This document shows, piece by piece, positions 10,640-59,518 of a DNA stretch of 64,000 nucleotides. The notes beneath the pieces were generated by a model. That model was not told the DNA's origin, searched no databases, and saw only the letters and a program-made list of their open reading frames with translations. The translations under genes and the position numbers were made by a program. The DNA is taken from NCBI GenBank assembly GCA_035533295.1, contig DATLUA010000054.1, forward strand, positions 5,002 to 69,001. Reading direction: 5' to 3'. How positions within the stretch are numbered: position 1 is the stretch's first letter; every line of letters starts with the position of its first letter. This DNA comes from Elusimicrobiota bacterium (GTDB lineage: Bacteria > Elusimicrobiota > Elusimicrobia > UBA1565 > UBA9628).

Positions 10640-10651
10640 GGCTGGAGCCTT

Positions 10652-12913
10652 ATGTGGAGAGCCTCCCGCCGCCTTTTCGCTAAAGCTTCCAAGAAGAGCC
10701 GGAAAAACAGCGCCTTTTCATCGGCTGCGCGCTGGCTTTTGGGGCTGTGCGCCTCGCTCTACTTCGCCGCGCTGGTCTACGCCCCCGCGCTTTCCGGCCC
10801 CTTCGGGCGCGCCGCGCACGAGGTCCTCATCCGCCTTCTGGGCCTCCCCACCTATTTCATCCCGGTTTTCCTGGCGGCCGTCTTGTTCCAGTACTTCCAC
10901 AAGGATTCCAGCCGCATGCGCCTAGCCGCCTTGGGCTCCCTCATAGCCCTGGCGGATTTGTGCGTGGCCGCGTCCTTGTTCGGGCAGTGGCTCTTTGCCA
11001 ATGCCGCGGCCGGCGGCGGCGCCTTCGGCAAGGCCGTGGAGCAGGCGTTCTACGGCTCGGTGGGAGGCTTTGGCACGCTGGCTATCGTTCTGACCCTTCT
11101 TCTCTTATCACTGCACCTGGCCTTCGGCATCCATTGGTCCCGGCTCTTGGTCCAGGGGTTCAAGACGTTGGCCGCGGACTACCGCAACTGGCAGAAAGCG
11201 CGTAAGGATTTGGCCCTTGAGTTAAAGCGCGCGCGCCTAGAGCGGGAAAAGAGCGAGGCAACGGCCGCGGTTACGGCCAAGGCCTCGGCGAAAGCCGCCG
11301 GGCCCATGCCGCAGAATTCAACCGCGTCCGAGCCCGCCAGGCCGGCGATGGTCATCCGTGAGGAAAAATCCAGGTCCGCCGCGCGCGCCCACGCTCCGGC
11401 CAAGGCGCCCCCGCCGCCGGCGCCGGGATCGCCTTACGCCAACTACCAGGCCCCGCCGCCCGACTTGCTCCAGCCGCCGCCGCCGTCTACGGAGCGCGGC
11501 AAACCCTCGCAGGAGGAGTTGACCCTGGCCGCCCAGGAGCTGGAGAAGACCTTGAAGAGCTTCGGCGTCGAGGCCAGCGTGAGCGGCTGCTCGCCGGGTC
11601 CCGTCATCACGCGCTACGAGCTTTCTCCCGCGCCGGGCGTCAAGGTGAGTTCGATCGTCTCTTTGGAGAACGACATCGCCTTGTCCATGAAGGCGCGCGG
11701 CATCCGCATCATCGCGCCCATTCCCGGCAAGGCCGCGGTAGGCGTGGAAATCCCCAACCACAAGCCGGCCATGGTCGTGCTGCGGGATATTTTGGGCATG
11801 CCGGTTCTCCCCTCGCAGGCGCCGCCCCTGTCCTTCGCGCTGGGCCTCTCCGCCGACGGCGAGCCCACGGCGGTCGATTTACAGAAGATGCCCCACCTGC
11901 TGGTGGCGGGCGCGACCAACAGCGGCAAGTCCGTGGCCCTGCACGCGCTGGTCATGTCCATCTTGATGCGCCGGCGCCCGGACGAGGTCAAGTTCCTGAT
12001 GATCGACCCCAAGCGCCTGGAGCTGACTTTCTACGACGGCATCCCCCATCTTTTCGATCCGACCGCGCCCTGCGAGGAAGCGGGCGTGATCACCAGCCCC
12101 AAGGCCGCGGCCAAGTCCCTGGGCGCCCTGGTCAAGCTCATGGAAAAGCGCTACGAGAAGTTCCAGCACATGGGCGTGCGCAACATCGACGCCTACAACG
12201 AGGAAGCTGACAAGAACGAGATGGAGAGGGAGTTCTTCGTCGTGGTCATCATCGACGAGCTGGCGGACCTGATGCTGGTCTCGCAGGAACGGGTCGAGGA
12301 CGCCATCCAGCGGCTGACCCAGATGGCGCGCGCGGTGGGCATCCACCTGGTGTTGGCCACCCAGCGGCCCTCGGTGGACGTCATCACGGGCGTCATCAAG
12401 GCCAATTTGCCCGCGCGGCTGGCGATGCAGGTGATTTCCCGCGTGGACTCGAAGGTCATCTTGGATGGCGTGGGCGCCGAGTCCTTGCAGGGCCGCGGCG
12501 ACATGCTCTACTTGGCCGCCGGCGCGCAGAGGCCCGAGCGCTGCCAGGGGGCGTACGTCAGCGAGCAGGAAATCCGCGCGGTGGTCAAGCACTTAAAGAC
12601 CCAGGGCAAGCCCAGCTACCCGATGCTGGAGACCATGGCCGCGGCGAGCAGCGCCGATGATTTGGCGTCTTTCGGCGTCGAGCCCTTGGAATTCTCGCAA
12701 GCCCTGAAGCTGGTTTTGGAGCGCCGGCGCGTCTCCCAGGATCTGCTCAAGTCCCAGTTCGGTTCCTCGGCGCGCGCGACCAATCTGCTTAGCCTGCTCG
12801 AAATCAAGGAGATGATTTTCAAGCCCGAAGGCTCCAACCGCTGGGAAATCAATTTCGACCGTATCGAGGACTACATGCGGCAGTATTTCCCCCAGGTTCC
12901 TCTGGGAAAGTAG
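10652..12913 (+). CDS. ftsK: DNA translocase FtsK/SpoIIIE
   Basis: N-terminal TM helices and a Pro-rich linker. Motor domain with Walker A (LLVAGATNSGKSVAL) and Walker B (FFVVVIIDELADL), plus a C-terminal gamma winged helix (VSQDLLKSQFGSSARATNLLSLLE). Confidence 0.93.
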   Translation: MWRASRRLFAKASKKSRKNSAFSSAARWLLGLCASLYFAALVYAPALSGPFGRAAHEVLIRLLGLPTYFIPVFLAAVLFQYFHKDSSRMRLAALGSLIALADLCVAASLFGQWLFANAAAGGGAFGKAVEQAFYGSVGGFGTLAIVLTLLLLSLHLAFGIHWSRLLVQGFKTLAADYRNWQKARKDLALELKRARLEREKSEATAAVTAKASAKAAGPMPQNSTASEPARPAMVIREEKSRSAARAHAPAKAPPPPAPGSPYANYQAPPPDLLQPPPPSTERGKPSQEELTLAAQELEKTLKSFGVEASVSGCSPGPVITRYELSPAPGVKVSSIVSLENDIALSMKARGIRIIAPIPGKAAVGVEIPNHKPAMVVLRDILGMPVLPSQAPPLSFALGLSADGEPTAVDLQKMPHLLVAGATNSGKSVALHALVMSILMRRRPDEVKFLMIDPKRLELTFYDGIPHLFDPTAPCEEAGVITSPKAAAKSLGALVKLMEKRYEKFQHMGVRNIDAYNEEADKNEMEREFFVVVIIDELADLMLVSQERVEDAIQRLTQMARAVGIHLVLATQRPSVDVITGVIKANLPARLAMQVISRVDSKVILDGVGAESLQGRGDMLYLAAGAQRPERCQGAYVSEQEIRAVVKHLKTQGKPSYPMLETMAAASSADDLASFGVEPLEFSQALKLVLERRRVSQDLLKSQFGSSARATNLLSLLEIKEMIFKPEGSNRWEINFDRIEDYMRQYFPQVPLGK

Positions 12914-44480: not shown

Positions 44481-44509
44481 TTGAATCCCGCCCCGGGATT
44501 TGGGATAAT
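44481..44509 (+). promoter_or_regulatory. Putative exbB promoter TTGAAT-17 nt-GATAAT, with the inverted repeat AATCCCG-ccc-CGGGATT in the spacer
   Basis: TTGAAT 44481-44486, GATAAT 44504-44509, ATG 44516 (6-nt gap). 7-bp inverted repeat at 44484-44500. Confidence 0.5.
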
Positions 44510-44515
44510 TCACGC

Positions 44516-45148
44516 ATGGAATTTCACGTCGGATTGAAGGAAATCATCGTCTCCGGGGGCGTGACCCTCGTATTCCTCATTTTTCTTTCCATTTATTCGC
44601 TGGCGCTCATATGGGAGCGCTGGCGCTACTTCGACACGGCCATCAAAGGGACCCAGGAGTTCCTGGAGAAAATCCGCAAGTTCATCGCCGCGCGGGATTT
44701 CTCGGAGGCCATGTCGGCGTGCCGCCGCCACCAGGGCCTGGCCCAGGGCGTGGTGATGGCGAGCCTGGCGGGCGCCAGCGCCCGGGATGAGCGCAAGCGC
44801 GGCGCCGAGCGGGCCAACGAACGGGCCGCGGCCCTCTTGCAAAAGCGCCTTTCGACCTTGGGCACCATTGCCAGCGTGGCGCCGTTCATCGGGCTCTTCG
44901 GCACGGTCGTGGGCGTCATGCGCGCTTTCCGGGACCTGGCCTCGGTCGCAGGCGCGGGGCCGGGCGTGGTCGCCATCGGCATCTCGGAAGCCCTGGTCTG
45001 CACAGCGACCGGGCTATTCGTGGCCATTCCGGCCGTCGCCGCCTACAACTATTTCAACTCGCGGACGGAGCGCTTCGCCGAGGAGATGGACTGGATTTCG
45101 GATGAAATCCTAGACAGCCTCTCGGACAAACCGCACAAGCTCTCGTGA
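44516..45148 (+). CDS. MotA/TolQ/ExbB proton-channel family protein
   Basis: ...LGTIASVAPFIGLFGTVVGVMRAF...IGISEALVCTATGLFVAIPAVAAYNYF is canonical TolQ/ExbB. I cannot tell tolQ from exbB. Confidence 0.9.
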   Translation: MEFHVGLKEIIVSGGVTLVFLIFLSIYSLALIWERWRYFDTAIKGTQEFLEKIRKFIAARDFSEAMSACRRHQGLAQGVVMASLAGASARDERKRGAERANERAAALLQKRLSTLGTIASVAPFIGLFGTVVGVMRAFRDLASVAGAGPGVVAIGISEALVCTATGLFVAIPAVAAYNYFNSRTERFAEEMDWISDEILDSLSDKPHKLS

Positions 45149-45555
45149 ACGCCGCGCGCAAGCCCGGCCGGCGGATCATCGCGGAGATGAACCTCATTCC
45201 GCTCATCGACGTGTCCCTCATCCTGGTCATCATCTTCATGGTCTTGACGCCCATGATGGTCCAGTCCGAACTGAGCGTCAAGTTGCCCAAGGCGTCCTCG
45301 GGGACTCCGGCGCCGGCCGCGACCACGATTCACGTGGAAATCGACCGCAACGGCGCGCTGATCATCGAGGGCCGGCCCGTCAACTGGGACGATTTGACGC
45401 GGGAGCTTTCCCTGCGCCTGGGCCGCTCGCGCAGCAAGACGGTCCTGGTTGAAGCGGACAAGAGCGTCGCCGTCGAGCGCGTCGTGGCCGTTCTGGACGC
45501 GGCCAAGCGCCTGGGCGTGGGCAAGATGGGCGTCGGCGTCGAGGCGCGGCCCTAG
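45145..45555 (+). CDS. ExbD/TolR biopolymer transport protein
   Basis: IAEMNLIPLIDVSLILVIIFMVLTPMM...VEADKSVAVERVVAVLDAAKRLG. 4-nt overlap with the upstream gene. Confidence 0.9.
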   Translation: MNAARKPGRRIIAEMNLIPLIDVSLILVIIFMVLTPMMVQSELSVKLPKASSGTPAPAATTIHVEIDRNGALIIEGRPVNWDDLTRELSLRLGRSRSKTVLVEADKSVAVERVVAVLDAAKRLGVGKMGVGVEARP

Positions 45556-45581
45556 ATGCCGGCAGACTTTCCTCGGACGAC

Positions 45582-48500
45582 GTGACCATCCACGATATCC
45601 TCGAAGAGTTCCGGCGGGAGGCGTCATCGAATCGGGAGCTCGGGGATAAGTTCGAGCGCCTCGTCGCCGGCTACCTAAAAACCGATCCGCTCTACCAAGC
45701 CAAGTATAGCGACATCTGGCTTTGGACCGAGTGGCCGGAGCGGAGCAAACGCCCCGATACCGGCATTGATATTGTCGCCAAGGAACGCGAGACCGGCGGA
45801 TACTGCGCCATTCAGTGCAAGTTTTTTGACCCCGCGCATAATCTCCAAAAAAGCGACATTGATTCATTCTTCACATCCTCAGGCAAGGAGCCGTTTACCA
45901 GCCGCCTGATCGTTTCAACCACGGATAATTGGAGCGCTAACGCCGAAGATGCTCTCAATAATCAACGGATTCCCGTCAGCCGCTTGCGCGTCCAGGATTT
46001 AGCCGAAAGTCCTGTTGATTGGAGCCGGTTCAGCCTCAATCGCCCCCAGTCTTTTAAGCTCAAAGAGCGGAAGAAAATCCTGCCGCACCAAGAGTCGGCT
46101 ATTAAGGATATCATCGCGGGATTTAAAACCGCCGACCGCGGCAAGCTCATCATGGCTTGCGGCACGGGCAAGACCTTCACCGCGCTTAAACTCGCCGAGC
46201 GGATGGTTCCGCTCGGCGGCCACGTTCTCTACTTGATGCCCTCGATTTCTCTGGTTTCTCAAACCTTGCGCGAATGGACGGCTGAAGCCGACAAACCGCT
46301 CCGCAGCTATATCGTGTGCTCGGATATCAAAGTCGGCAAGAAATTCGAGAGCGAGGATATCAGCGTCCACGATCTGGCTTTCCCGGCGACCACGAATGCC
46401 GCTAAACTGGCGAATCAGGTAAAAGCTTTCGCCGACAAAAAGCGCCTGGCCGTCATTTTCTCGACTTATCAATCCATCAAGGTTGTTTCAGAAGCCCAAG
46501 CCAAGGGAGCGCCCGCATTCGATCTCATCATCTGCGATGAGGCCCACCGCACCACCGGCGTCACGCTTGAAGGAGAAGACGAGTCCCATTTTGTCCGCGT
46601 TCACAGCCAAGATTTCATCAAGGCTAAAAAGCGCCTCTACATGACCGCCACCCCGCGCATCTATGGCGATGGGGCCAAGACCCAAGCGAAGGAAAAAGAC
46701 GCTCTTCTCTGCTCGATGGATGACGCGGAGCTCTACGGCCCCGAATTTCACCGCTTGGGATTTTCGGAGTCCGTAAGGAATGATTTGCTCTCTGACTACA
46801 AGGTCATGGTCCTCGCGGTGGATGAGAAATTCGTCAGCAGGACATTTCAAAGCCAATTAGCAGATAAGAACAATGAAATCAACCTTGAGGACGCGGTCAA
46901 AATCACGGGCTGTTGGAACGGCCTTTCCAAGCGCATGGCCAAGGACCCCACGGGCTACATCGCGGATGATATTACGGTGCCGATGCGCCGCGCGGTCGCG
47001 TTTTCGCGCTCTATTAGGGATTCAAAACGAATCAAGGATTTATTCGCCGCCGTCATTGAGCAATATCGAAAGATGGAGACAAGCGATGACGGCATGTTGT
47101 CGTGCGAGGTAGAGCACGTTGATGGCACCTTCAACGCTCTCAAGCGCAATGAGAAGCTCGATTGGCTAAAGGCCGATCTCGATCCGGAGAATAACGTTTG
47201 CCGCATTCTTTCCAATGCACGCTGCCTGTCCGAAGGCGTGGACGTGCCCGCGCTGGACGCGGTTTTATTCTTGAATCCGCGCAATTCCGTGGTCGACGTG
47301 GTGCAGTCCGTCGGGCGCGTGATGCGCAAGGCTCCCGGCAAAAAGTACGGCTACATTATCTTGCCGGTCGGCATACCGGCGGACGTGCCGCCCGAGGAAG
47401 CTCTTAAGGACAATCAGAGATACAAGGTGGTCTGGCAGGTTCTGCAAGCTCTGCGGGCCCATGATGATCGCTTTAGCGCGACCATCAATAAAATCGACCT
47501 CAATAAAACGCGGCCCGACCAAATACAAATCATCGGCATCGGCGGCGGAGCCAAAGGAGACGGTTCTGGAACCAGCGATGTGAAACCCGCCCAACTTGTC
47601 TTTAATTTCCCACAAATCGAGGAGTGGCGCAACGCGATTTACGCCAAAATCGTTTTAAAGTGCGGTGAGCGCCAATACTGGGAGAAATGGGCGCAGGACG
47701 TGGCGCAAATCGCGGAGCGGCACGTCACGCGCATCAAGGCTCTTTTGGATGGACCTAAAAATAAGAAACATCGCGAGGCTTTCGCCGGGTTCCTCAAGGG
47801 TTTACAGAAAAACCTCAACCCAAGCATTGACGAGTCCGCCGCCGTTGAAATGCTCTCCCAGCATCTGATCACCAGGCCCGTGTTCGACGCCTTATTTGAA
47901 GGTTACGAGTTTACCAAGCACAACCCGGTCTCTCTTTCCATGCAGAAGATGCTGGATTTGCTGGAGGATCAGGCGCTGGGAAAAGAAACCGCGGGCTTGG
48001 AAAAATTCTACGCCAGCGTCAAGGAACGCGCCAGCGGCGTTGACACTCAGGAAGGCAGGCAGCGCATCGTTATCGAGCTCTACGAAAAATTTTTCCAAGC
48101 GGCATTCCCGCGCATGAAGGAACGTCTTGGCATCGTTTACACGCCGGTTGAAGTTGTAGATTTCATCATCCATAGCGTGAACGACGCCCTGCGCCAGGAG
48201 TTCAACGTAAGTTTAAGCGATCAAGACGTTCATATCCTCGACCCCTTCACCGGCACGGGAACATTCATGGTCCGCCTGCTTCAAAGCGGACTAATCTCTT
48301 CCAAAGATTTGACGCGAAAATACGAGAGCGAGCTTCATGCCAATGAAATCGTCCTCCTGGCCTACTATATCGCGGCCATCAACATCGAGGAAGCCTACCA
48401 TAGCATCACACAGGAGAAATATCAGTCTTTTGAAGGCATCGTCCTGACCGATACCTTCCAACTGACAGAGGCCGGCGGGCCGCAAACGGAAACGACGTTC

Positions 48501-50342
48501 CAAGAGAATAATAAACGCGTTTCACGCCAGAACAAGACCGACATCCGTGTCATCATCGGCAATCCGCCGTATTCAGCCGGGCAGACCAGCGAGAACGACG
48601 CGAACAAGAATTTTAAATACCCGACCCTGGATACTCGAATTGAAACCACCTACGCGGCGAGTTCTTCGGCGGGCCTCAAAAAAACTCTTTACGATTCTTA
48701 TATTCGCTCAATCCGCTGGGCCAGCGACCGCATCAAGGACACGGGCATTATTTGCTTCGTAAGCAACGGTTCTTTTATCGACGGCAACGCCGCTGACGGC
48801 CTCCGCAAATGCTTGGCGGATGAGTTTTCCTCCATCTACTGCTTTAATTTACGTGGCAATCAGAGGACATCAGGCGAGATTTCTCGCATGGAAGGCGGCA
48901 AAATTTTTGGGTCAGGCAGTAGAGCAAGTATTGCCATCACCTTGCTTATCAAGAACCCCAAGAAGGATAAGTGCCGACTTTACTATCACGACATCGGCGA
49001 TTACTTGAGCCGCGAGGAAAAGCTGAAAATAATCCGGGACTTTCGAAGCTTCAAACAAGTTTCCTGGAAAGCCATCACCCCCAATAAAAGCCATGATTGG
49101 ATCAACCAGCGCGATCCGGCTTTCGAAAGATTTATCCCCATGGGTGATAAAGCGAAAGAAGAAAAGCAAATACCTCTTTGGTCGCTTTATTCGCTGGGGG
49201 TGGTCACCAACCGCGATGCCTGGGCATACAGCTTTTCCAAGAAGAATTTGACCGCGAATATGCGCCGGATGATTGATTTCTATAATCAGCAGGCTACCGG
49301 TTATAAGAAAGCGATCTCCAAGGGCAAAGCCGTTAAAGTTGAAGATTTCATTGATAATGATTCCAAAAAAATCAGTTGGACACGAAGCCTAAAAAACGAT
49401 CTTTCTAAAGGCAAGCAATACGAGTTTAACGCAGACTCGATAGTTCAAGGGATGTATCGCCCCTATTGCAAACAATGGATTTATTTCAATAGACGTTTTA
49501 ATGAAATGGTTTATCTGATGCCCAGCATTTTTCCAAATGAGTCGCTTCAGAATTTAGTTATCACAGCCAGTGGTATTGGCGCCAGCAAGGGCTTCTCTGC
49601 GCTGATGACGGATGCCGTTCCCAACCTGGACTTGCATGATAAGTGCCAATGCTTTCCGCTGTTCTCATACGAAAAATCCGAGGATTTGGGCGAACTCTTC
49701 GCGGCGCATGCAAAATCCAATGGATACTTCAAGAAGGACGCTATCAACGATGATATCCTGACGCTATTCGGGAAAACTTACGACGGCAAGATCATCAAGG
49801 AAGACATTTTCTACTACGTCTACGGCATCCTGCATTCGCCGGAATATAAACGGCGTTTTGAGTCTGACCTTAAGAAAATGCTGCCGCGCATTCCGCTGGC
49901 AAAGGATTTCTGGGCCTTCAGCAAAGCCGGCCGCGCTTTGGCCCAGTGGCACCTGAATTATGAAACCGTCGAGCCCTATCCGCTCAAAGAATCCGATGAC
50001 GCGCTCCGCCTTGAGCCGAAGAGACACTACCGGGTCGAAAAAATGCGCTTCGCCAAGCAAGGCAAGGACGAAGACAAAACCGCCATCATCTACAACAGCC
50101 ATCTGACCCTTGAGGGCATTCCGCTTGAAGCCTGCGAGTATGTCGTCAACGGCAAGCCCGCGCTTGAATGGATTATGGAACGCTACCAAGTCACCACGGA
50201 TAAGGACAGCGGCATCGTCAATGACCCAAATGACTGGTCGGACGATCCGCGATACATCTTAGATTTGGTCAAGCGCATCGTCCGCGTAAGCCTGGAAACG
50301 ATGAAGATTGTTAAGAGCCTGCCGGTGATTTCGGAACTTTGA
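45582..50342 (+). CDS. Type ISP restriction-modification enzyme (single polypeptide: Mrr-like nuclease, SF2 helicase-like ATPase, N6-adenine gamma-MTase, TRD)
   Basis: 1586 aa. N-terminal PD-(D/E)xK (PDTGIDIVAKERETGGYCAIQCKFF). Walker A ACGTGKTF (46161-46175 = GTGKT), DEAH (46536-46547), motif VI QSVGRVMRK. MTase motif I DPFTGTGTF (48240-48266) and motif IV NPPY (48561-48572). Long C-terminal TRD. Same order and size as LlaGI/LlaBIII-type enzymes (about 1570-1580 aa as I recall). Confidence 0.9.
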   Translation: MTIHDILEEFRREASSNRELGDKFERLVAGYLKTDPLYQAKYSDIWLWTEWPERSKRPDTGIDIVAKERETGGYCAIQCKFFDPAHNLQKSDIDSFFTSSGKEPFTSRLIVSTTDNWSANAEDALNNQRIPVSRLRVQDLAESPVDWSRFSLNRPQSFKLKERKKILPHQESAIKDIIAGFKTADRGKLIMACGTGKTFTALKLAERMVPLGGHVLYLMPSISLVSQTLREWTAEADKPLRSYIVCSDIKVGKKFESEDISVHDLAFPATTNAAKLANQVKAFADKKRLAVIFSTYQSIKVVSEAQAKGAPAFDLIICDEAHRTTGVTLEGEDESHFVRVHSQDFIKAKKRLYMTATPRIYGDGAKTQAKEKDALLCSMDDAELYGPEFHRLGFSESVRNDLLSDYKVMVLAVDEKFVSRTFQSQLADKNNEINLEDAVKITGCWNGLSKRMAKDPTGYIADDITVPMRRAVAFSRSIRDSKRIKDLFAAVIEQYRKMETSDDGMLSCEVEHVDGTFNALKRNEKLDWLKADLDPENNVCRILSNARCLSEGVDVPALDAVLFLNPRNSVVDVVQSVGRVMRKAPGKKYGYIILPVGIPADVPPEEALKDNQRYKVVWQVLQALRAHDDRFSATINKIDLNKTRPDQIQIIGIGGGAKGDGSGTSDVKPAQLVFNFPQIEEWRNAIYAKIVLKCGERQYWEKWAQDVAQIAERHVTRIKALLDGPKNKKHREAFAGFLKGLQKNLNPSIDESAAVEMLSQHLITRPVFDALFEGYEFTKHNPVSLSMQKMLDLLEDQALGKETAGLEKFYASVKERASGVDTQEGRQRIVIELYEKFFQAAFPRMKERLGIVYTPVEVVDFIIHSVNDALRQEFNVSLSDQDVHILDPFTGTGTFMVRLLQSGLISSKDLTRKYESELHANEIVLLAYYIAAINIEEAYHSITQEKYQSFEGIVLTDTFQLTEAGGPQTETTFQENNKRVSRQNKTDIRVIIGNPPYSAGQTSENDANKNFKYPTLDTRIETTYAASSSAGLKKTLYDSYIRSIRWASDRIKDTGIICFVSNGSFIDGNAADGLRKCLADEFSSIYCFNLRGNQRTSGEISRMEGGKIFGSGSRASIAITLLIKNPKKDKCRLYYHDIGDYLSREEKLKIIRDFRSFKQVSWKAITPNKSHDWINQRDPAFERFIPMGDKAKEEKQIPLWSLYSLGVVTNRDAWAYSFSKKNLTANMRRMIDFYNQQATGYKKAISKGKAVKVEDFIDNDSKKISWTRSLKNDLSKGKQYEFNADSIVQGMYRPYCKQWIYFNRRFNEMVYLMPSIFPNESLQNLVITASGIGASKGFSALMTDAVPNLDLHDKCQCFPLFSYEKSEDLGELFAAHAKSNGYFKKDAINDDILTLFGKTYDGKIIKEDIFYYVYGILHSPEYKRRFESDLKKMLPRIPLAKDFWAFSKAGRALAQWHLNYETVEPYPLKESDDALRLEPKRHYRVEKMRFAKQGKDEDKTAIIYNSHLTLEGIPLEACEYVVNGKPALEWIMERYQVTTDKDSGIVNDPNDWSDDPRYILDLVKRIVRVSLETMKIVKSLPVISEL

Positions 50343-50344
50343 TT

Positions 50345-51154
50345 ATGAACGGCTATATCGGATATTTCGATATTTTAGGCTACAGAAGTTTTCTTGAAAA
50401 CAACCCTCAAGAAGGCGTTCAAAAGCGCGTTCTTGGACTAATTGCGGATGTGAAAAAATCGCTGCCCGAAGCGATGAAAAAATATCGCTCCAAACTTTCT
50501 GAAGCCGCCGAGGAAATTATTGGCAAGACGAACTGGCTTGTTTTTTCGGACACGATTGTTTTTGCCATAGAAGAGCCTGACAACAAGAAGGATGAATTGC
50601 TCTATTTCCCGATCGCGATAATCACGGCTGGAGATTTGATGACGCGCATGTTTAATGACGGCCTGCCTCTGCGCGGCGCGCTTCATCATGGGCAATATAA
50701 TTTTCTTGAAAACAGCATGGCTGGAACAGGAGTGGTCCAAAGCATTAACGCGGGAAAAGATTTGGATTTGTCCGCCTGCGTTTTAACGGAGGAATTGGCG
50801 AAAAGAGCAGGAGAGCTAATTGAAGCAACCCAGCCTGATGAAGCCGACCGTAATTTCTGGGATCAAATATTATGCGACTACAGCGTGCCGATCTCCGGAG
50901 ATAAATGGGCTAAGCGGAAATGCCTGATGTGGTTTGACCTGAATCATATCGAAAACCTGAGAGGGGACGGAATCATGCAAGCGCTCAGCCGCCTCGACTA
51001 CCGTCAATATGTTCTGCTTTCTTTTTGGGCGCACAACAAAGGCATCTCCGATACTAAAACCGTGCGGAAGCTTGATGAAACCGAAAGATTCATTCGCTAT
51101 TGCGTTTTTAGGCGCGATGAAAATCAGCGAGCAAATCACCGAAGTAAGCCTTGA
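50345..51154 (+). CDS. Uncharacterised protein; N-terminal ~165 aa resemble a class III nucleotidyl-cyclase homology domain (palm fold), C-terminal ~100 aa unknown
   Basis: ATG 2 nt after the ISP stop. MNGYIGYFDILGYRSF (compare F-x-D-I-x-G-F-T), NWLVFSDTIVFAI (compare G-D-x-h-h-h-h-F), GLPLRGALHHGQYNF (compare h-R-h-G-h-H-x-G), GTGVVQSINAGKDLDLSACVLTEEL (compare G-x-x-V-N-x-A-x-R...hhhs). The spacing of these blocks fits a CHD. The Arg of the N-x-x-x-R pair is not obvious. Confidence 0.6.
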   Translation: MNGYIGYFDILGYRSFLENNPQEGVQKRVLGLIADVKKSLPEAMKKYRSKLSEAAEEIIGKTNWLVFSDTIVFAIEEPDNKKDELLYFPIAIITAGDLMTRMFNDGLPLRGALHHGQYNFLENSMAGTGVVQSINAGKDLDLSACVLTEELAKRAGELIEATQPDEADRNFWDQILCDYSVPISGDKWAKRKCLMWFDLNHIENLRGDGIMQALSRLDYRQYVLLSFWAHNKGISDTKTVRKLDETERFIRYCVFRRDENQRANHRSKP

Positions 51155-51197
51155 GACCATGAAAATCGTCAAGAGCGCGAAAAAGCAAAACTCATGA
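51117..51197 (+). pseudogene. Remnant of the 3' end of a second, diverged Type ISP gene
   Basis: MKISEQITEVSLETMKIVKSAKKQNS* versus the intact gene end ...LVKRIVRVSLETMKIVKSLPVISEL*. Nucleotides 51144-51176 versus 50286-50318 are 27/33 identical, and all six differences fall in third codon positions. It overlaps the last 38 nt of the cyclase-like ORF in another frame. Confidence 0.5.
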
Positions 51198-51385
51198 GCA
51201 CCGCGGTCAAATCGGTCAACGACATGCACAAAAAGGTCAACGTCGAATGCGAACGGATTCTAGAATCCCTGCGCGATTACTGGAAGACCGAAGCGAAAGT
51301 CCATCATGGAATCACGGCCTCTTTGGGGAACGAGTCCACGAAGCCGCTTCCGGCAATCGAATTCGAGAAGGATGGCGGACGATGA
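51194..51385 (+). CDS. Small hypothetical protein (63 aa)
   Basis: ATG overlaps the remnant TGA (ATGA at 51194-51197). Fairly high third-position GC. MSTAVKSVNDMHKKVNVECERILESLRDYWKTEAKVHHG... No family recognised. Confidence 0.4.
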   Translation: MSTAVKSVNDMHKKVNVECERILESLRDYWKTEAKVHHGITASLGNESTKPLPAIEFEKDGGR

Positions 51386-51422
51386 TGAAGGTCGGCTCAT
51401 TGCTGGAAAATAAAAACGAAAA

Positions 51423-51440
51423 GCCCCGGTTTCCCGGGGC
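51423..51440. terminator. GC hairpin GCCCCGG-tttc-CCGGGGC; the U-tract is only on the minus-strand side
   Basis: Stem 51423-51429 / 51434-51440. The plus strand continues ttgggc (weak). The minus strand continues ttttcgtttttatttt (strong intrinsic-terminator tail). Lies 38 nt after the 63-aa ORF stop. Confidence 0.5.
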
Positions 51441-51504
51441 TTGGGCAACTCGCATCCGTCCGCCGGAGGCTAGTGTGTCAGCAGACGGCATTTTTGTCAA
51501 TAAG

Positions 51505-51640
51505 CCCTATCAACCCCCTATCAACCCTCGGGCTAAGGCTTGCCCCAGGGCTAGCCACCCCCTAGCCACCTGGCTATCCAGACCTAGCCACCCCCTAGCC
51601 ACCCCCCGTATACCTAGGCCTGCCTATCTGCCTATCTGCC
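51505..51640. repeat. Cluster of short direct repeats rich in CTAG/CTAT
   Basis: CCCTATCAACC x2 in tandem (51505-51526). CTAGCCACCCCCTAGCCACC x2 (51551-51570 and 51584-51603), i.e. 4 copies of CTAGCCACC plus degenerate copies (ggctatcca, ggctaagg). GCCTATCT x2.4 in tandem (51622-51640). Confidence 0.85.
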
Positions 51641-51665
51641 GCCGGCTTTTTATCTGGATAAAGCT

Positions 51666-52370
51666 TTGAACAAAACGATAGTCCCCGCCGACTTGAAGCC
51701 TTATCTTCGCTACTCCGTCTTTCTGCACGCGGCCATCGGCTTCGCCATGGCTCTGGCCTTCATCAAGAGCGCGCCGCGGATGAGCGGCGTCTACACCATC
51801 GACGTCGTGGGCCCGGCGCCCTCCATCGCGGAAAACCAAAGCGCCGCGGCGGCCAAAAAGTCCGGCCCAGCCGCCGTTGCGAAGGCCGCCGCGGGCCACA
51901 TGGAGGAGCAAAGAAAAACGCGGGAGTTCGGCGCGCGGCGCCGCCCGCAGGAGGCCCTGCCGCCGCCCAGCCTTCTTGAGGGCTATCAAAACGTATCCGC
52001 GTCCAAGCCCGCGCCGGCGGCCGCGGCTCCGGCCGAGGAATCCGCTAAGCCCGCGGGCTCTGCCGCGCCCGGCTCGGTGAGCATGTCGCTCTCGAATTTC
52101 CCATACCCGTGGTACATCAGCCAAATCCGCATGGCGCTTTGGCGGCAGTGGTCGGAGCGCATGCCGGGCGGCGGCGGCAGCAGCGTCGTGGTCTTTTCCA
52201 TACTTCCCGATGGGAACGTCACGGATTTGCGCACCGAGGAAAGCTCGGGAGACGCGGCTTTCGATTTGACGGCCCTGGGCGCGGTCAAGGACGCGGCGCC
52301 CTTTCCGCCGCTGCCCGCGGGCTTCAAGAAGCCTTTCTTGACGATTCATCTGACCTTGACGTCCTCCTAG
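51666..52370 (+). CDS. TonB/TolA-like energy-transducer protein
   Basis: N-terminal TM (YSVFLHAAIGFAMALAFI), an Ala/Pro-rich linker, and a C-terminal FPYPWYISQIRMALWRQW...VVVFSILPDGNVTDLRTEESSGDAAFDLTALGAVKDAAPFPPLP (TonB_C-like). TTG start. Confidence 0.75.
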   Translation: MNKTIVPADLKPYLRYSVFLHAAIGFAMALAFIKSAPRMSGVYTIDVVGPAPSIAENQSAAAAKKSGPAAVAKAAAGHMEEQRKTREFGARRRPQEALPPPSLLEGYQNVSASKPAPAAAAPAEESAKPAGSAAPGSVSMSLSNFPYPWYISQIRMALWRQWSERMPGGGGSSVVVFSILPDGNVTDLRTEESSGDAAFDLTALGAVKDAAPFPPLPAGFKKPFLTIHLTLTSS

Positions 52371-54187: not shown

Positions 54188-54498
54188 TGGTAGAAGCCGA
54201 CGGGTTTTTGTCCGCCGGATGGGGCGGGCTCTCCGGCCGGGACGGCGCCGAAACGCGCTTCGTACTTCTCGATGTTGTCCTTGAGCGCCCACAAGAGCCG
54301 CTTGGCGTGCACCGGGGAGGACACGATGCGCGCGAGGACCTTCGATTTCGGGCTCTGCGGCTGCAGGAACAGGAAATCGAGCACGAACTCGGTCTCGCTG
54401 TGCGTGATGAGCGCCAAGTTGGCGTAGGCGCCCCGCGCCGTGGCGTCATCGATTTCGATCTTCAGCTGGGGCTGGGGAGCGGGCTTTTTTTCTTCCAT
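54184..54498 (-). CDS. DUF3467-family small protein
   Basis: MEEKKPAPQPQLKIEIDDATARGAYANLALITHSETEFVLDFLFLQPQSPKSKVLARIVSSPVHAKRLLWAL... matches my memory of DUF3467. Confidence 0.7.
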   Translation of the reverse strand: MEEKKPAPQPQLKIEIDDATARGAYANLALITHSETEFVLDFLFLQPQSPKSKVLARIVSSPVHAKRLLWALKDNIEKYEARFGAVPAGEPAPSGGQKPVGFYQ

Positions 54499-54510
54499 GG
54501 CCCGAGTGTA

Positions 54511-57500
54511 TTATTTTTTCTCTTTGATGAACAACGCCGCGGCGGCGGGCAACACGATCAAGGTTAATATCGTCGAGGTCAAGATGCCGCCGATGACGGC
54601 CACGGCCATAGGCTGCTCGAGCTCCGAACCCGTGCCCCAGCCGGTCGCCAGAGGCACCAGGCCCAGGACCATGACCGAGGCGGTCATCAAAATGGGGCGC
54701 ACGCGCTTCAAGGCCGCCGAGGAAATGGCTTCTTTTAATGGAACGCCTTCCGCGACCTGGGTGTTCATATAGTCCAAAAGCAAGATGCCGTTGCGGACTA
54801 CGATGCCGACGAGCAAAACCGCGCCGATCATGGAGGAGACGTTCACGGTCTGATGGCAGAGCCAGAGGCTGAAAACGGCGCCTACCCCGGCCAAAGGGAC
54901 GGTCAGGAGGATAATGAAAACCTGCGTCCAGGAACGGAACTCCAGCCACATGATGAGGGCGACCACGACGATCGCGAAGCCCAGCACCATCAGCAGGTTG
55001 GAGAAGGACTTCTGCTGGGCGGCGTATTTTCCGGTAAAGGCCCAGGAGTAGCCCGGGGGCAGGTGCAGGTCCTCGACAGCCTTCCGCACGTCTGCGGCCA
55101 CGTCCCGAGCGTTGCGGCCGCTGATGTTCGCGGTGACGGTGACCATGCGGCTTAAGTGCTCATGGTCGATTTCGCTTGGGATCTCGCTGTAGCTTAAGTT
55201 CGCCACCTGTTCCAAGGGCACGATGTTCCCCCCTGCGGTCCGCAAGGGCAGGCTGTCCATGGCCTCGAAATCGATGTTTTGGCCGGGGGTGGCGTAGTGC
55301 AGGGTCACGTTGATGCGCTTTAAGACTTGGTGGATGGTTGTGGCGACCAAGCCCACCGAGTAGGCGTCCAAAGTGTCGTAGATGGTTTTTTCCGAGATGC
55401 CCAGGCGGCCGGCTTCCTTTTTGTTGAGGGTCACCTGAAGCGAAGGCACCGGAATGGTGGCCGGAGGCATCAAATTGACGATGCCCGGAAGAGGCTTCAT
55501 GGATTTGACCAGTTTCTGCGCGTAGGAGTTGAGCTTTCCCAAATCCGGGCCAAAAATATTGACGCCCAAGTCGGCCGGCACGCCGCCCATGGCGTCGTTG
55601 ATCTTGTCCGCCAAAGGCATAAGATACTCGGCCGAGACGCTGGGCAAGGCGTCGGTCCTGGCGTTCATCATGGCGATGAATTCCTTGAGCGGGATGGGCC
55701 TCTTGGTCTTTGGCACGAGCTTGATCATGATGTCGCTGTGATTGATGTTGTCCGTGTCCTCCGCGCCCGCGGCATGCCCAGTGAGGCGGGCCACGGTCAC
55801 CACGCCCGGCAAGCTCTGCGCCCACTTCTCGATTTTTCGGTTGACCCGTTCGGCTTCGGTCAGGGAAACTCCGGGCGGCATGAGGGTCGACAATAAAACC
55901 GCGCCTTCGTCCAGGCTCGGCAGGAACTCCACGTTGAGCTTGCGGAAAAATCCCAAGGCGGCCACGGCGGGCAAAAGCCCTAGGACAATGGCCGCCAGCG
56001 GCCGCCGCATCGCGGCCTTGAGGATTTTGGAATATCCGTGCTTGAGCGGGCCTTCGGTTTCCTCGGGGGGCGCGTCCTTCTCCGTGAGCCAATAGAGAGC
56101 CAGGGTGGGGATGACGGTCACGGCGACGATCAGGGACGCGAGGATGGTGAAGGTCACGGTGAAGCTTACCGGCGAGAAGAGCCGGCCGGCGAAGCCCGCC
56201 ACGAACACCATGGGCAAAAAGATGCCGATGTTGGTCATCGTGGAAACCACGACGGGCTTGATGACTTCCTGGGTCGCGGCGATGACCAGGTCCTTATGGC
56301 CCAGCTTTCCGCGCAGGGCCGGCGTGGAGAGCCAGCGGAAAATATTCTCCAGCACCACGATGGCGTCGTCGACGATGATGGCCGTGCCGATGGCGAGTCC
56401 TCCCAGGGACATGACGTTTAGGCCGATGCCCAAAACACGCATGAGAATCAGCGCGGCCACGACCGAAATGGGAATGCTGATGGTGGCGATGAGCGTGGTC
56501 TTGGAGCTTCGCAAGGCGAAGGCCAGCACCAGGATGACCAAAAGCCCGCCGATCCAGACGTTCTCCTTGACGTTTTCGATGGAGTCCGAAACGAGCTGGG
56601 CTTGGTCGTAGTAGTTGTGGATGGTGACGCCTTCGGGCAGGCTCTTCGAAAATGTCTTGATTTCGGCGTCGGTGCGGGCGGCCACGTCAAGCGTGCCGAA
56701 GGAGGGCTGCTTGAATATCTGGATGAGCACGGCAGGATGCCCGTCCTCCGAAGTGTCCCCCCGTTCGTATTGGTAGGTTTGGGTCACACGCGCGACGTCC
56801 TTGACCCGCACGGGGATCCCGTCCTTGACCGCGATGACGACTTCCCCGATTTCCACCGCGCTGCTGAACTGCCCGTCCGAGTGGAGGACGAGCTCCTGGC
56901 TGTCGTGAACCACGGTGCCTGGGTTGGCCAGGATGTTGTTGTCTGCCAGCGCCGTGCGCACGTCCTCCAAAGTCACGCCGTACTTGATCATGAGGTAGGG
57001 ATTGAGGCGCACGGAGTATTCCAGCGCCTTGCCGCCAATGACCAGGACCTTGTAGACGCCCATAATGCGCTGGAGCTGCGGCCGCAGCTGATAAGCCGCG
57101 ATGTCGCGCAGCTCCGCGGGGCTGGTATTTGGGCCGCCGCTCAGGCTGTATCCCTGAATCATGGCCAGGGTGGCGCCCAAGGTCTCCACGCTGGGCTCGG
57201 TGTTGGGCGGCAGTTGGCCGCGGATGGAGGACAGCGCCTGGAGAATGAGTTCGCGGGCCTGAAGCATGTCGGTGCCCCAGGCGAACTGGATGGAGACCAT
57301 GGAAATGCCCGTAGCCGAGGCAGAGCGCACCTTGCGCACGCCTAAAACGCCGCTGAAGGCGCTTTCAAGGGGAACGGTGATCTGCCGCTCCATTTCCAAT
57401 GAGGAGTAGCTGGGCATCTGCGTGACTACGCTTAGGATCGGAAAATTGAGGGATGGAAACAGCCCCACCTGCAAACCCTTGTTGGACGCGAAGCCGGCCA

Positions 57501-57573
57501 GGAAAATCAGGGCCACGGCCATCGCGACCATCTTCGGAGCTTCGAGCAGCTTGGAGAGCAATTTTTTGAACAT
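54511..57573 (-). CDS. RND efflux pump inner-membrane permease (CzcA/CusA-like)
   Basis: 1020 aa, 12 TM and two large periplasmic loops. N-terminus ...VAMAVALIFLAGFASNKGLQVGLFPSLNFPILSVVTQMPSYSSLEMERQITVPLE. Confidence 0.93.
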   Translation of the reverse strand: MFKKLLSKLLEAPKMVAMAVALIFLAGFASNKGLQVGLFPSLNFPILSVVTQMPSYSSLEMERQITVPLESAFSGVLGVRKVRSASATGISMVSIQFAWGTDMLQARELILQALSSIRGQLPPNTEPSVETLGATLAMIQGYSLSGGPNTSPAELRDIAAYQLRPQLQRIMGVYKVLVIGGKALEYSVRLNPYLMIKYGVTLEDVRTALADNNILANPGTVVHDSQELVLHSDGQFSSAVEIGEVVIAVKDGIPVRVKDVARVTQTYQYERGDTSEDGHPAVLIQIFKQPSFGTLDVAARTDAEIKTFSKSLPEGVTIHNYYDQAQLVSDSIENVKENVWIGGLLVILVLAFALRSSKTTLIATISIPISVVAALILMRVLGIGLNVMSLGGLAIGTAIIVDDAIVVLENIFRWLSTPALRGKLGHKDLVIAATQEVIKPVVVSTMTNIGIFLPMVFVAGFAGRLFSPVSFTVTFTILASLIVAVTVIPTLALYWLTEKDAPPEETEGPLKHGYSKILKAAMRRPLAAIVLGLLPAVAALGFFRKLNVEFLPSLDEGAVLLSTLMPPGVSLTEAERVNRKIEKWAQSLPGVVTVARLTGHAAGAEDTDNINHSDIMIKLVPKTKRPIPLKEFIAMMNARTDALPSVSAEYLMPLADKINDAMGGVPADLGVNIFGPDLGKLNSYAQKLVKSMKPLPGIVNLMPPATIPVPSLQVTLNKKEAGRLGISEKTIYDTLDAYSVGLVATTIHQVLKRINVTLHYATPGQNIDFEAMDSLPLRTAGGNIVPLEQVANLSYSEIPSEIDHEHLSRMVTVTANISGRNARDVAADVRKAVEDLHLPPGYSWAFTGKYAAQQKSFSNLLMVLGFAIVVVALIMWLEFRSWTQVFIILLTVPLAGVGAVFSLWLCHQTVNVSSMIGAVLLVGIVVRNGILLLDYMNTQVAEGVPLKEAISSAALKRVRPILMTASVMVLGLVPLATGWGTGSELEQPMAVAVIGGILTSTILTLIVLPAAAALFIKEKK

Positions 57574-57579
57574 GGCGGT

Positions 57580-58239
57580 CTAGTCCGCCTCCGCTTTGAA
57601 ATCGGGATACAAGTATCCGATGCCGCCTTGAACCACGACCCGATCTCCGGGCTTCAAGCCGGATTTTATTTCCACCGCCTCGTTCGTGACTTCTCCCAAA
57701 GTCACCGCCGTCGGGACATAGTTCGTCTGCCCTGATGGATTTTCCGGCGGCTCGGCGCGGATGACCCAGGCCTGCCCGCTCTTGAAGAGCACCGCCGCGG
57801 GCGGAACGGCGAGGACATGGTGGCGCACCCGAGTTATGATGCGCGCGTCGACGAAATTGCCCACGGGCACGTCGCCGTCGCCGACGGGCCTTAGCCAGGC
57901 GATAGACTGTCCGGTCTCGGCGCTGACGGCGCGCAGGATCCGCGCTACGCGGCAATGGATGGGCGCGGTCGACGGCGCCACGTAAGCCGTGGCGCTTTCG
58001 CCGCGGAAAACTCGGGGCGTGTCCGCCGCCTCGATATTGACCGCGAACTCAAGCCGGCCGGTCTCCTCGGTTGAGATCCCGTAGCCGGGCACATATTCCT
58101 TAAGATCCTGCAAGCGCGCCCGTACTACGGCGGGCTGGTCATCAAGGGCGGGAAGCGCCGCCATGCGTTTTTCGGAGCAGCCCGCAAGGCAGAGGAGGGC
58201 CGTCGTCAATGCAGAGGTCGCGCGCAGTGCCCTATTCAT
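57580..58239 (-). CDS. Short RND periplasmic adaptor (MFP) lipoprotein
   Basis: Lipobox LLCLAGCSEK. C-terminal beta-barrel/MP-like ...HVLAVPPAAVLFKSGQAWVIRAE...VEIKSGLKPGDRVVVQG. Only 219 aa; no coiled-coil hairpin segment is evident. Confidence 0.7.
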   Translation of the reverse strand: MNRALRATSALTTALLCLAGCSEKRMAALPALDDQPAVVRARLQDLKEYVPGYGISTEETGRLEFAVNIEAADTPRVFRGESATAYVAPSTAPIHCRVARILRAVSAETGQSIAWLRPVGDGDVPVGNFVDARIITRVRHHVLAVPPAAVLFKSGQAWVIRAEPPENPSGQTNYVPTAVTLGEVTNEAVEIKSGLKPGDRVVVQGGIGYLYPDFKAEAD

Positions 58240-59518
58240 AAATCTTGGCGGCGGCGGGGCCGCCTTGTCCGGTCAAATCCTGCATGGCGGCCAAATCTTG
58301 AAGGTAGGAATAGTAGGCCGCGCGTTCCCCGAGCAAAGCGTTGAGCCAAATTTGCATGGCGCCAGTGGCTTCCAGAATGGTCGTGGCGCCGCGGCGGTAG
58401 CGTTCCACGGTTGATTGAGCCGAGCGGCGGCTCTCGGGCAAGAGGTTCTGGAGGCGCTTCATCTCGGCCAAGTCTGCTTGGGCTTGGACCTCCGCACGCG
58501 CAAAAGTAGCGGTAAGCGCCTGCTCCTTCGCCGCCAGCGCGTTGTCCGCTAGGGAGACTGAAGTTTGATTTTGGCGGATGCGCGAGGAAATTTGCCCCCA
58601 GTCGAAGATGTTGAGCCGCAAGCCAACGCTGAGCACGTGTCCCATTATGGTCTCTTTCATGGTCGGTCCGCCGTAGCCGTATTGATAGTTGGCGACCAGT
58701 TGGGGGTAGCGCTGGCCACGGGCTTCTTTCAGGCCCATTTTTGCGGCGTCGGCCTGCGCTTTGAGCGAGGCCAGAGCCGGGCTTCCTTCGACTTGACCGT
58801 AAGAGAAGCTGGGAATGGCGGGCAAGGCCGAGATGGGTTTGAGCGCCAAGCCCTCTTTCGTCGAGAGCCCGAGGATGAGGGCCAGCTGCGTTTCATCCGT
58901 CTCCAACTGGACGGAGAGCAAATCGTGCAGTCGGGCCAAGTTCGCCAGGCTGGATTTGACTTGAATCAAATCAAAAGGCGGCGCGCGGCCCATGGTGTAG
59001 CGCGGGATGACGGTCAGGCGCAGGCGATTAAAGCGCTCCTCGACCTTGTTCAAGTCCGCCACGGCGTCCTGATTATTAAGGATGGAGAAATAAAGGCTTT
59101 CGATCGTGAGCGCGACATCCTGCTTGGTCTGGATTTTGGCGTATTGGGCGGCGCGCGAAAGAGCGTCCAGACGCTCGCGCTCGTACCACTTCGGAGAGAA
59201 AGGAAAGCCGTCGTAGTTGACCGCGACCGCTCCGTTTTCCGAATTGTCCAGAATGGGGGCGTAAAGCGGGCTGTTGGTCTCCGTATACCCCCCCAACGCG
59301 GAAACGGCGGGCAGAAGGTTTCGCAGCGCCTCTTGTTTTTGCTGCCGGGCCAGAAGCGCCTGGAGTTGGGCCCTGACGCTTTGCGGCGACTTGGCTTCGG
59401 CAAGCGCCAGGCATTGGGCCAGGGTGAGTTCCTGCGGCTGAGCCGACGCGGAAAGGCAAAGCGAGAAAAGCGGGAGAATTAGGAGCGGCGGAATGATCTT
59501 GATGCCCGGGAACTTCAT
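58232..59518 (-). CDS. TolC-family outer-membrane efflux protein
   Basis: 428 aa. Signal peptide and two OEP repeats (LTLAQCLALAEAKSPQ..., ...ATFARAEVQAQADLAEMKRLQNLL...TILEATGAMQIWLNALL). Confidence 0.85.
   Translation of the reverse strand: MKFPGIKIIPPLLILPLFSLCLSASAQPQELTLAQCLALAEAKSPQSVRAQLQALLARQQKQEALRNLLPAVSALGGYTETNSPLYAPILDNSENGAVAVNYDGFPFSPKWYERERLDALSRAAQYAKIQTKQDVALTIESLYFSILNNQDAVADLNKVEERFNRLRLTVIPRYTMGRAPPFDLIQVKSSLANLARLHDLLSVQLETDETQLALILGLSTKEGLALKPISALPAIPSFSYGQVEGSPALASLKAQADAAKMGLKEARGQRYPQLVANYQYGYGGPTMKETIMGHVLSVGLRLNIFDWGQISSRIRQNQTSVSLADNALAAKEQALTATFARAEVQAQADLAEMKRLQNLLPESRRSAQSTVERYRRGATTILEATGAMQIWLNALLGERAAYYSYLQDLAAMQDLTGQGGPAAAKIYE

Follow-up and report, generated by a model that had tools for sequence, protein, structure and literature searches.

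In Type ISP restriction-modification (RM) systems, one polypeptide methylates an asymmetric target (hemi-methylation), and on unmodified DNA the enzyme translocates in an ATP-driven manner and cleaves when two enzymes collide. A gene of this type is described here from a 64,000-nucleotide (nt) stretch of DNA, referred to as the window (positions 5,002 to 69,001 of contig DATLUA010000054.1, assembly GCA_035533295.1, from an Elusimicrobiota bacterium). Together with a gene for a cyclase-fold protein, it lies in an interval of 6110 base pairs (bp; 45556-51665), termed the island, that separates exbD from tonB in an exbB-exbD-tonB cluster. RM genes have been reported to insert into operon-like clusters at start or stop sites, with no linked mobility genes, and the published class of such insertions is defined by long target duplications, tens of bp in length, that flank the insert (Furuta et al. 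2010, PMC2853133). In the reading favored here, to which a probability of about 0.75 is assigned, the island is a horizontally acquired ISP cassette that inserted at the exbD/tonB boundary and captured the exbB promoter, and its right end is a native relic.

A strain-specific insertion between exbD and tonB

The MotA/ExbB, ExbD/TolR and TonB_C genes are adjacent and in the same orientation in relatives, as in an operon, and they are contiguous in all 14 of the loci inspected (3 from the same genus and 11 from the same family). A blastn alignment of the window with G001, the closest genome, stops at 45551 and restarts at 51663. A protein search with TonB shows one orthologue in 39 of 41 genomes, i.e., the genome studied and 40 relatives. 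A metagenome scan with the tonB 5′ end revealed an additional contig, L145, which belongs to the JGI sample series that also gave the island-bearing contig; L145 is free of the island, is 91-93% identical to the window, and has a tight exbD/tonB junction with an overlap in TTGA. The same overlap is found in G001, and the TTG start of tonB is common to the window, G001 and L145, while G002 and G003 have a spacer of 43-46 nt and a GTG start. Thus the synteny expected in the original prediction, with tonB directly after exbD, is seen in the 14 relatives and in L145. No congener that carries the island was detected among the 40 relatives or in the metagenome scans. A spacer-type empty site was also not found in the metagenome scan, and a second scan gave only empty sites of the overlap type.

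The island has a GC content of 51.4%, compared with 62.7% genome-wide (z = -4.2 over the whole 2.58-Mb assembly), and ranks third lowest in GC among 2124 windows of 6.1 kb from the whole genome. Its tetranucleotide distance ranks 3 of 734 windows. In windows of 500 nt, GC is 43-56% across 45.5-51.5 kb and 58-69% in both flanks. The GC content of third codon positions (GC3) is 0.55-0.70 in the ISP gene and 0.50 in the cyclase-fold gene, and 0.83-0.93 in exbB, exbD and tonB. The AT-richer composition, which had been noticed from a few hand-counted lines, is therefore a break in GC, tetranucleotide and GC3 statistics alike, and synteny and composition agree on a strain-specific, compositionally foreign insertion inside the cluster.

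The source genome is an assembly of 91 contigs. The island junctions are the same in four further assemblies (one JGI, two ENA and one Logan), and thus the island is not an assembly chimera. One of the ENA contigs, L139, was considered as a second strain with the island, but it is identical to the window from 42345 to ~54345 and is hence not independent evidence. Beyond ~54345, L139 is ~12% divergent from the window (54345-59154, an ACR_tran transporter region); this is a boundary of recombination between strains, or else the contig is chimeric.

As originally predicted, the island lacks an integrase, a tRNA gene and a clear flanking repeat. No tRNA genes were found in the window, and there is no match to the tyrosine recombinase family (PF00589) on the whole 69-kb contig C54. 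Pfam scans of the open reading frames (ORFs) of the island show no recombinase or transposase domains; families other than the tyrosine recombinases were not searched genome-wide. Elsewhere the genome has eight tyrosine recombinases, five of which are beside tRNA genes as classical integrase-plus-tRNA pairs. No convincing terminal repeats, terminal inverted repeats or target duplication are present at the island, and no flanking repeat exceeds chance. The statement that there is no tRNA is literally true, but a relic of a tRNA locus forms the right border, as described below.

It should be noted that the best NCBIfam matches of the three host proteins are TolQ, TolR and TolA, all below the equivalog cut-offs, and ExbB-ExbD-TonB and TolQ-TolR-TolA both fit. 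The exbB and exbD genes overlap by 4 nt (GTGA). The genome holds three TonB_C genes, and near each of them lies a separate exbB; the two other ExbB/TonB sets may buffer any polar effect on tonB.

Cargo genes and the left junction

The island contains a 1586-amino-acid (aa) Type ISP gene, a 269/271-aa gene, a remnant of an ISP tail, a 63-codon ORF, a hairpin and a repeat cluster, all found where the original prediction had placed them (Table 1). Its label of a defence island is generous, in that one proven defence family, Type ISP, is present and the other main gene is of unknown function.

The ISP protein displays the Pfam domain order Mrr_cat_2, ResIII/Helicase_C, ISP_coupler, N6_Mtase and Type_ISP_C, which is the Type ISP architecture, and is matched over its full length by the PADLOC model REase_MTase_IIG. 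Residues 4-1582 align with residues 16-1573 of LlaBIII (4XQK), i.e., end to end. The motifs are intact: D59…Q77-C-K79, GTGKT at 194, DEAH at 319, DPFTGTG at 887 and NPPY at 994. The gene is thus predicted to encode a complete, motif-intact enzyme of the LlaGI/LlaBIII type, with an Mrr nuclease, an SF2 helicase-like ATPase, a coupler, a gamma-class adenine methyltransferase and a target-recognition domain in one polypeptide. Unlike the plasmid-borne LlaGI and LlaBIII, it is chromosomal, promoterless and within a housekeeping operon, and has a translationally coupled cyclase-fold gene after it; we know of no coupled cyclase-fold gene described for LlaGI or LlaBIII. Relatives of the ISP gene are scattered over many phyla and are 47-52% GC whatever the host.

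The ISP gene has no upstream DNA of its own, as was originally proposed. The closest ISP homologue (~80% aa and 76% nt identity) is on L016 (GCA_027343145.1, DAHWMP010000008.1), whose host is ~50% GC, and nucleotide homology to that locus begins at 45585, right after the GTG. Thus the cassette comes without its own 5′ untranslated region, promoter, leader or ribosome-binding site. L016 and L057 have a 16-aa N-terminal extension that is absent from the window ISP, and most other ISP homologues listed carry a Met in frame, 0-2 codons ahead of the TIHDIL motif. The GTG at 45582 is 26 nt past the exbD stop, which ends at 45555, as had been noted. Since the ISP gene has no leader of its own, the 26-nt spacer must supply its ribosome-binding region, and translation would start from this host-side sequence. 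The promoter-like site of exbB is the only plus strand sigma-70-type match from 43.7 kb to the ISP start, and no terminator-like site was found between exbB and the ISP gene. Because the cassette lacks its own 5′ region, transcription from the exbB promoter as exbB-exbD-ISP-cyclase-like is the most likely arrangement.

The ATG of the second cargo gene lies 2 nt past the ISP stop, and the two genes are predicted to be translationally coupled. Searches of Pfam (including Guanylate_cyc), NCBIfam and PADLOC (including Pycsar; E <= 0.1) gave no family match for the 269-aa protein, and a sequence search of the PDB also gave none. About 100 homologues were found. An AlphaFold model built from 41 sequences has a pLDDT of 92 and a pTM of 0.91, and in a Foldseek search of the PDB with this model the top 50 matches listed are all class III adenylyl/guanylyl cyclases (E 1e-5 to 1e-3, TM 0.4-0.67). 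Residues D9, D69 and R110, which are candidates for the two metal-binding Asp and the transition-state Arg of such cyclases, are invariant in the 41 homologues, in motifs F-DI-GY, FSDT and GLPLRG. The model and its fold matches thus support the presence of a cyclase-homology-domain fold, and the earlier description of this gene as cyclase-like holds at the level of fold. The protein is similar to class III cyclases, and to Pycsar cyclases among them, in its fold match (E ~1e-5) and in the invariant Asp, Asp and Arg, and differs from class III cyclases in an extra C-terminal helical domain. It differs from Pycsar in that there is no PADLOC match, no adjacent effector gene in the island and no conserved neighbor.

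Homologues of the cyclase-fold gene have TIR, Fic, BrnTA and SLOG/PRTase genes around them, but no partner gene was found to be conserved across the homologous loci. In L141 (2768-7179) and L143 (263-4128), a homologue of 54% identity is present in a small island with TIR_2, Fic and a BrnT/BrnA pair, a context that suggests an association of this family with defence islands.

The closest homologue of the cyclase-fold protein is also on L016 (65% aa identity). There the gene order, between 3139 and 10792, is ISP, membrane protein, DprA/SLOG-like, PRTase-like, a second ISP C-terminal tail and the cyclase-fold gene. Window positions 50295-51113 are collinear with L016 positions 9951-10766, which comprise the second ISP tail and the cyclase-fold gene (71% nt identity), and thus the arrangement of tail, stop, 2 nt and ATG is an inherited unit. 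The window looks like the L016 array without its three middle genes. On L016, conserved copies of the ISP tail seem to bound accessory cassettes. A similar tail is found in the window, where what is left of the 3′ end of a different ISP allele is identical to 50286-50318 at 27 of 33 nt; it is in a different frame from the cyclase-fold gene, overlaps it and supplies its last codons. A swap of the recognition domain, which would make the ISP gene a mosaic, was considered as an explanation for the two-step GC profile and the spare tail, and was rejected; identity to the L016 ISP is roughly even, at 70-86% per segment. Spare ISP tails instead seem to bound accessory cassettes. The 63-codon ORF that follows has no homologue outside of its own genome in 5.8 billion proteins, and a six-frame comparison shows no similarity to regions downstream of ISP genes.

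The right end and its tRNA-linked relatives

The hairpin and the repeat cluster are present as originally described, but they are not AT-richer foreign DNA and belong instead to a decayed copy of a lineage-native locus. Partial copies of segment 51404-51662 occur in G001-G003 and on four further contigs of the genome studied, and the last ~260 nt of the island is a decayed paralogue of a native locus linked to tRNA genes. The canonical locus, in G001:C59, has the order 11-mer array, tRNA-Asp, terminator and mini-gene. The mini-genes have a promoter of the form TTGACA-17-TAnACT, and in relatives every copy follows a same-strand tRNA gene at a distance of 110-130 nt, mostly tRNA-Asp and also tRNA-Tyr and tRNA-Glu. 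The 5′ part of the mini-gene RNA (~22-25 nt) is the exact reverse complement of positions ~5-13 of the adjoining tRNA joined to positions ~22-38. The complementarity omits the D-loop, and from locus to locus and genome to genome it covaries with the neighboring tRNA. Rfam contains no family that fits the hairpin or the module, its matches being terminator-like and sub-threshold, and a full-text literature search found no description of a tRNA-antisense mini-gene locus.

In the window copy the tRNA is missing and the array abuts the mini-gene promoter. The -35 element, spacer, terminator and array are kept, and the -10 element is degenerate (CACACT). The terminator hairpin is GC-rich, with 9 bp; its T-tract is on the minus strand and there is no U-tract on the plus strand. 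No tRNA complementary to the RNA of this copy was found in the genome, and the copy is thus a relic and not a working member of the family. A comparable loss is found at C21 of the same genome, an orthologue of the canonical locus that shows a clean deletion of the tRNA-Asp and the terminator hairpin.

The 11-mer arrays sit directly upstream of gene starts or tRNA promoters and look like phased sites for a putative DNA-binding protein. About a dozen C-rich tandem arrays of ~11 nt are present in the genome, with units such as CCCCTATCNAN and CTAGCCACC and with TAGCCA-CC-TGGCTA palindromes. Between the window array and tonB, no consensus promoter on the plus strand was found in 51641-51665. An AT-rich imperfect palindrome, GCTTTTTATC-TG-GATAAAGC (51643-51662), lies directly before the tonB start and recalls the GATAAT of the exbB promoter; it may be an operator. 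Expression of tonB probably occurs by read-through, or from a weak or unrecognised promoter in the array segment; the uncoupling of tonB from exbBD that was originally proposed is plausible, but read-through is just as possible because the hairpin has no U-tract on the plus strand.

Low-GC DNA is found near several of the mini-gene loci. A stretch of at least 600 nt below 48% GC lies within 1.5 kb of 5 of the 15 loci of the genus, compared with 3.7% of random windows (binomial P ~2e-4), so that such DNA adjoins these loci more often than chance predicts, and RM or ATPase genes were identified at three loci. In G001:C61 a BglII-type endonuclease and methylase lie between two modules, the second of which is preceded by a 5′ fragment of tRNA-Asp, and in G003:C1 and G001:C26 AAA/ORC-like ATPase genes of 42-43% GC lie beside modules. 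The C21 locus has a strain-specific insert of 1.8 kb on its array side. These loci thus appear to be places where strain-specific DNA of low GC, with RM and ATPase genes among it, recurs. A more speculative view, given little credence here, is that the tRNA and antisense RNA loci with 11-mer arrays are portable or recombinogenic landing pads for integrase-less RM and ATPase cassettes, and that the mini-genes represent a class of RNA not yet described, one that is antisense to tRNA-Asp, -Tyr and -Glu in their 5′ half. The island in the TonB operon may then be one entry event caught after loss of the tRNA.

Two other loci are recorded here. GC is lowest, for the genome as a whole, in a Type I RM island (G000 C27:27964-37788, which is L026 9965-19789) that starts at an 11-mer array just after uvrA and has genes for HsdM, DUF3800, an unknown protein, HsdS, a PIN-domain protein, HsdR and a YgjP-like peptidase. 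In G001:C16 (L053 5245-6306) there is an insert of 1.06 kb that is absent from the genome studied here (G000 C66:21976-22015). It consists of a mini-gene-like unit and an ORF of 238 aa whose N-terminus is hydrophobic, and the same CCCCGGGAAACCGGGG hairpin forms its end.

Table 1. Coordinates of the island, the flanking host genes and related elements (positions are those of the window; G000 is the genome studied, with its contigs as C numbers)
Feature	Position	Strand	Basis or remarks
Promoter-like site of exbB, TTGAAT-17-GATAAT with TG	44481..44509	+	Consensus scan
exbB/tolQ-like proton-channel gene	44516..45148	+	Pfam MotA_ExbB 4e-31; native, GC3 0.85
exbD/tolR-like gene	45145..45555	+	Pfam ExbD 6e-27; native; stop TAG ends 45555
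Spacer, 26 nt, 62% GC	45556..45581		Between exbD stop and ISP GTG
Type ISP RM gene, 1586 aa, GTG start (predicted)	45582..50342	+	Pfam, PADLOC, LlaBIII alignment, motifs
Class III nucleotidyl-cyclase-fold protein with C-terminal helical domain, 269 aa (predicted)	50345..51154	+	AlphaFold model, fold matches
3′-end remnant of a different ISP allele (…ITEVSLETMKIVKSAKKQNS, stop; …EVSLETMKIVKSAKKQNS, stop)	51117..51197	+	Pairs with 50286-50318
63-codon ORF, possibly not a gene	51194..51385	+	Orphan
Decayed mini-gene copy (predicted)	51410..51500	-	TTGACA 51500-51495, 17 nt, CACACT 51477-51472, ~50-nt RNA, terminator hairpin 51442-51421
C-rich repeat array of ~11 nt (CCCTATCAACC x2, CTAGCCACC x4, GCCTATCT x2)	51505..51640		Like arrays upstream of tRNA-Asp in relatives
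New tonB 5′ region (…GGCTTTTTATCTGGATAAAGCT)	51641..51665		TTATC-TG-GATAA palindrome; GGA 10 nt before TTG
tonB/tolA-like gene	51666..52370	+	Pfam TonB_2, TonB_C; native, GC3 0.83; TTG start
Mini-gene family copies	G000 C21:11133-11227, C23:31412-31500, C46:89020-89100, C52:48474; L031-L056		
11-mer arrays	G000 C14:12305-12412, C89:3950-4074, C27:27511-27640, C46:89174-89282, C49:1020-1121, C78:12775-12848, C82:12328-12389		

Origin of the island and comparison with known systems

The sequence of events favored here would begin with an ISP and cyclase-fold pair derived from an array of ISP and accessory genes such as that of L016, with the spare ISP 3′ tail as the mark of an earlier rearrangement. 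The cassette would have entered exactly at the exbD/tonB boundary of one of the three ExbB-ExbD-TonB clusters, by illegitimate or homology-assisted recombination and not by a resident recombinase. The foreign DNA would start at the ISP start codon, so that a transcript exbB-exbD-ISP-cyclase-like is made from the exbB promoter, and the relic array and mini-gene would now form the upstream region of tonB. Several observations weigh against this scheme. No strong Shine-Dalgarno sequence is visible in the 26-nt spacer, and a native origin of the spacer gains no support from its similarity to the exbD-tonB spacers of G002 and G003, which is at chance level (2164 and 3451 of 5000 shuffles reach it). 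The last 18 nt of exbD (GTCGAGGCGCGGCCCTAG) show seven differences from L145 and G001, the closest relatives without the island, and a single one from either G002 or G003. A TGA microhomology is common to the left and right junctions; their best alignment is a weak gapped match of 55 nt, equaled by 35 of 3000 shuffles, part of which belongs to the native right-end module. The statistic for low-GC DNA near mini-gene loci has a background taken from one genome only, and the loci are not fully independent.

The exbD 3′ end represents either a retained ancestral spacer-type junction or a homologous exchange with a congener that already carried the cassette after exbD. The latter leads to a different origin, in which the cassette was imported by homologous recombination from such a congener, with the left crossover in the conserved 3′ part of exbD; if so, the original insertion happened elsewhere. 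Both the 18-nt pattern and the genus-native DNA of the right-end module are in keeping with an import, but the retained ancestral junction accounts for the same data, the 5′ end of tonB is of the L145/G001 type up to the junction with no matching right-hand exchange tract visible, and none of the 40 relatives or the metagenome scans supplied a possible donor with the island. An import of this kind is thus possible but doubtful. A decayed mobile element, which carried an odd tRNA-Asp, the antisense mini-gene and defence cargo and has since lost the tRNA and any recombinase, would explain why the right border is a tRNA-less copy of an array/tRNA/antisense locus. Such loci vary between strains and adjoin low-GC RM or ATPase genes, and the tRNA-Asp 5′ fragment before the second module of G001:C61 lies beside the BglII-type RM genes. 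This origin is considered unlikely, as the island shows no recombinase, transposase, terminal inverted repeat or target duplication, the cargo is on different sides of the module at different loci, and the module could predate the cargo at this site.

The favored insertion with capture of the exbB promoter should also be weighed against an arrangement in which ISP and tonB are served by separate promoters that went unrecognised, one in the exbD 3′ end or spacer and one in the repeat array, which would make three independent transcription units. Consensus scans are a crude tool, promoter or activator sites could lie in the 11-mer arrays found directly before gene starts and tRNA promoters (C14, C46 and C89; G001:C59), and between the cargo and tonB there is a GC-rich hairpin of 9 bp. 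On the other hand, no plus strand -35/-10 match of at least 9/12 was found in 45301-45620 or 51381-51665, only 26 nt with no terminator lie between exbD and the ISP start, and the hairpin has no U-tract on the plus strand; separate promoters are therefore regarded as a minority view. An ancestral cassette that all relatives have lost, or an artefact of assembly or binning, has nothing in its favor beyond the 91-contig assembly. The 14 relatives and L145, without the island and with tight exbD-tonB junctions, the strongly atypical composition, and the identical junctions in four other assemblies make either highly improbable.

The island is a natural example of a defence gene without its own promoter, leader or mobility gene. 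The cassette appears to persist because it uses the expression signals of a housekeeping operon as its own, and the price is that tonB is split from its energising partners. This raises the question of whether iron- or envelope-linked regulation of the exbB promoter sets restriction levels, and of how tonB stays expressed. If the association of mini-genes with low-GC DNA holds, these loci would be hot spots of a new type for islands that lack an integrase, and their RNA would be a small RNA of a new kind, directed at tRNAs.

In comparison with known systems, the island is similar to the RM insertions of Furuta et al. 2010 in that an RM gene present in one genome is absent from close relatives, lies at a gene boundary with its neighbors intact, and has no linked integrase or transposase. 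It differs in having no convincing target duplication, long or otherwise, and in that the junction coincides with the start of the foreign ORF, with a tRNA-locus relic at the opposite end. The island also resembles tRNA-associated genomic islands, as low-GC foreign defence cargo abuts sequence derived from a tRNA locus, and such loci in the genus repeatedly adjoin strain-specific cargo. Unlike these islands, it has neither a tRNA gene or partial tRNA direct repeat nor an integrase, and its relic consists of an antisense mini-gene and an upstream array and not of a tRNA 3′ end. RM genes are already known as mobile units; what is unusual here is a right border with a relic of a tRNA-antisense locus.

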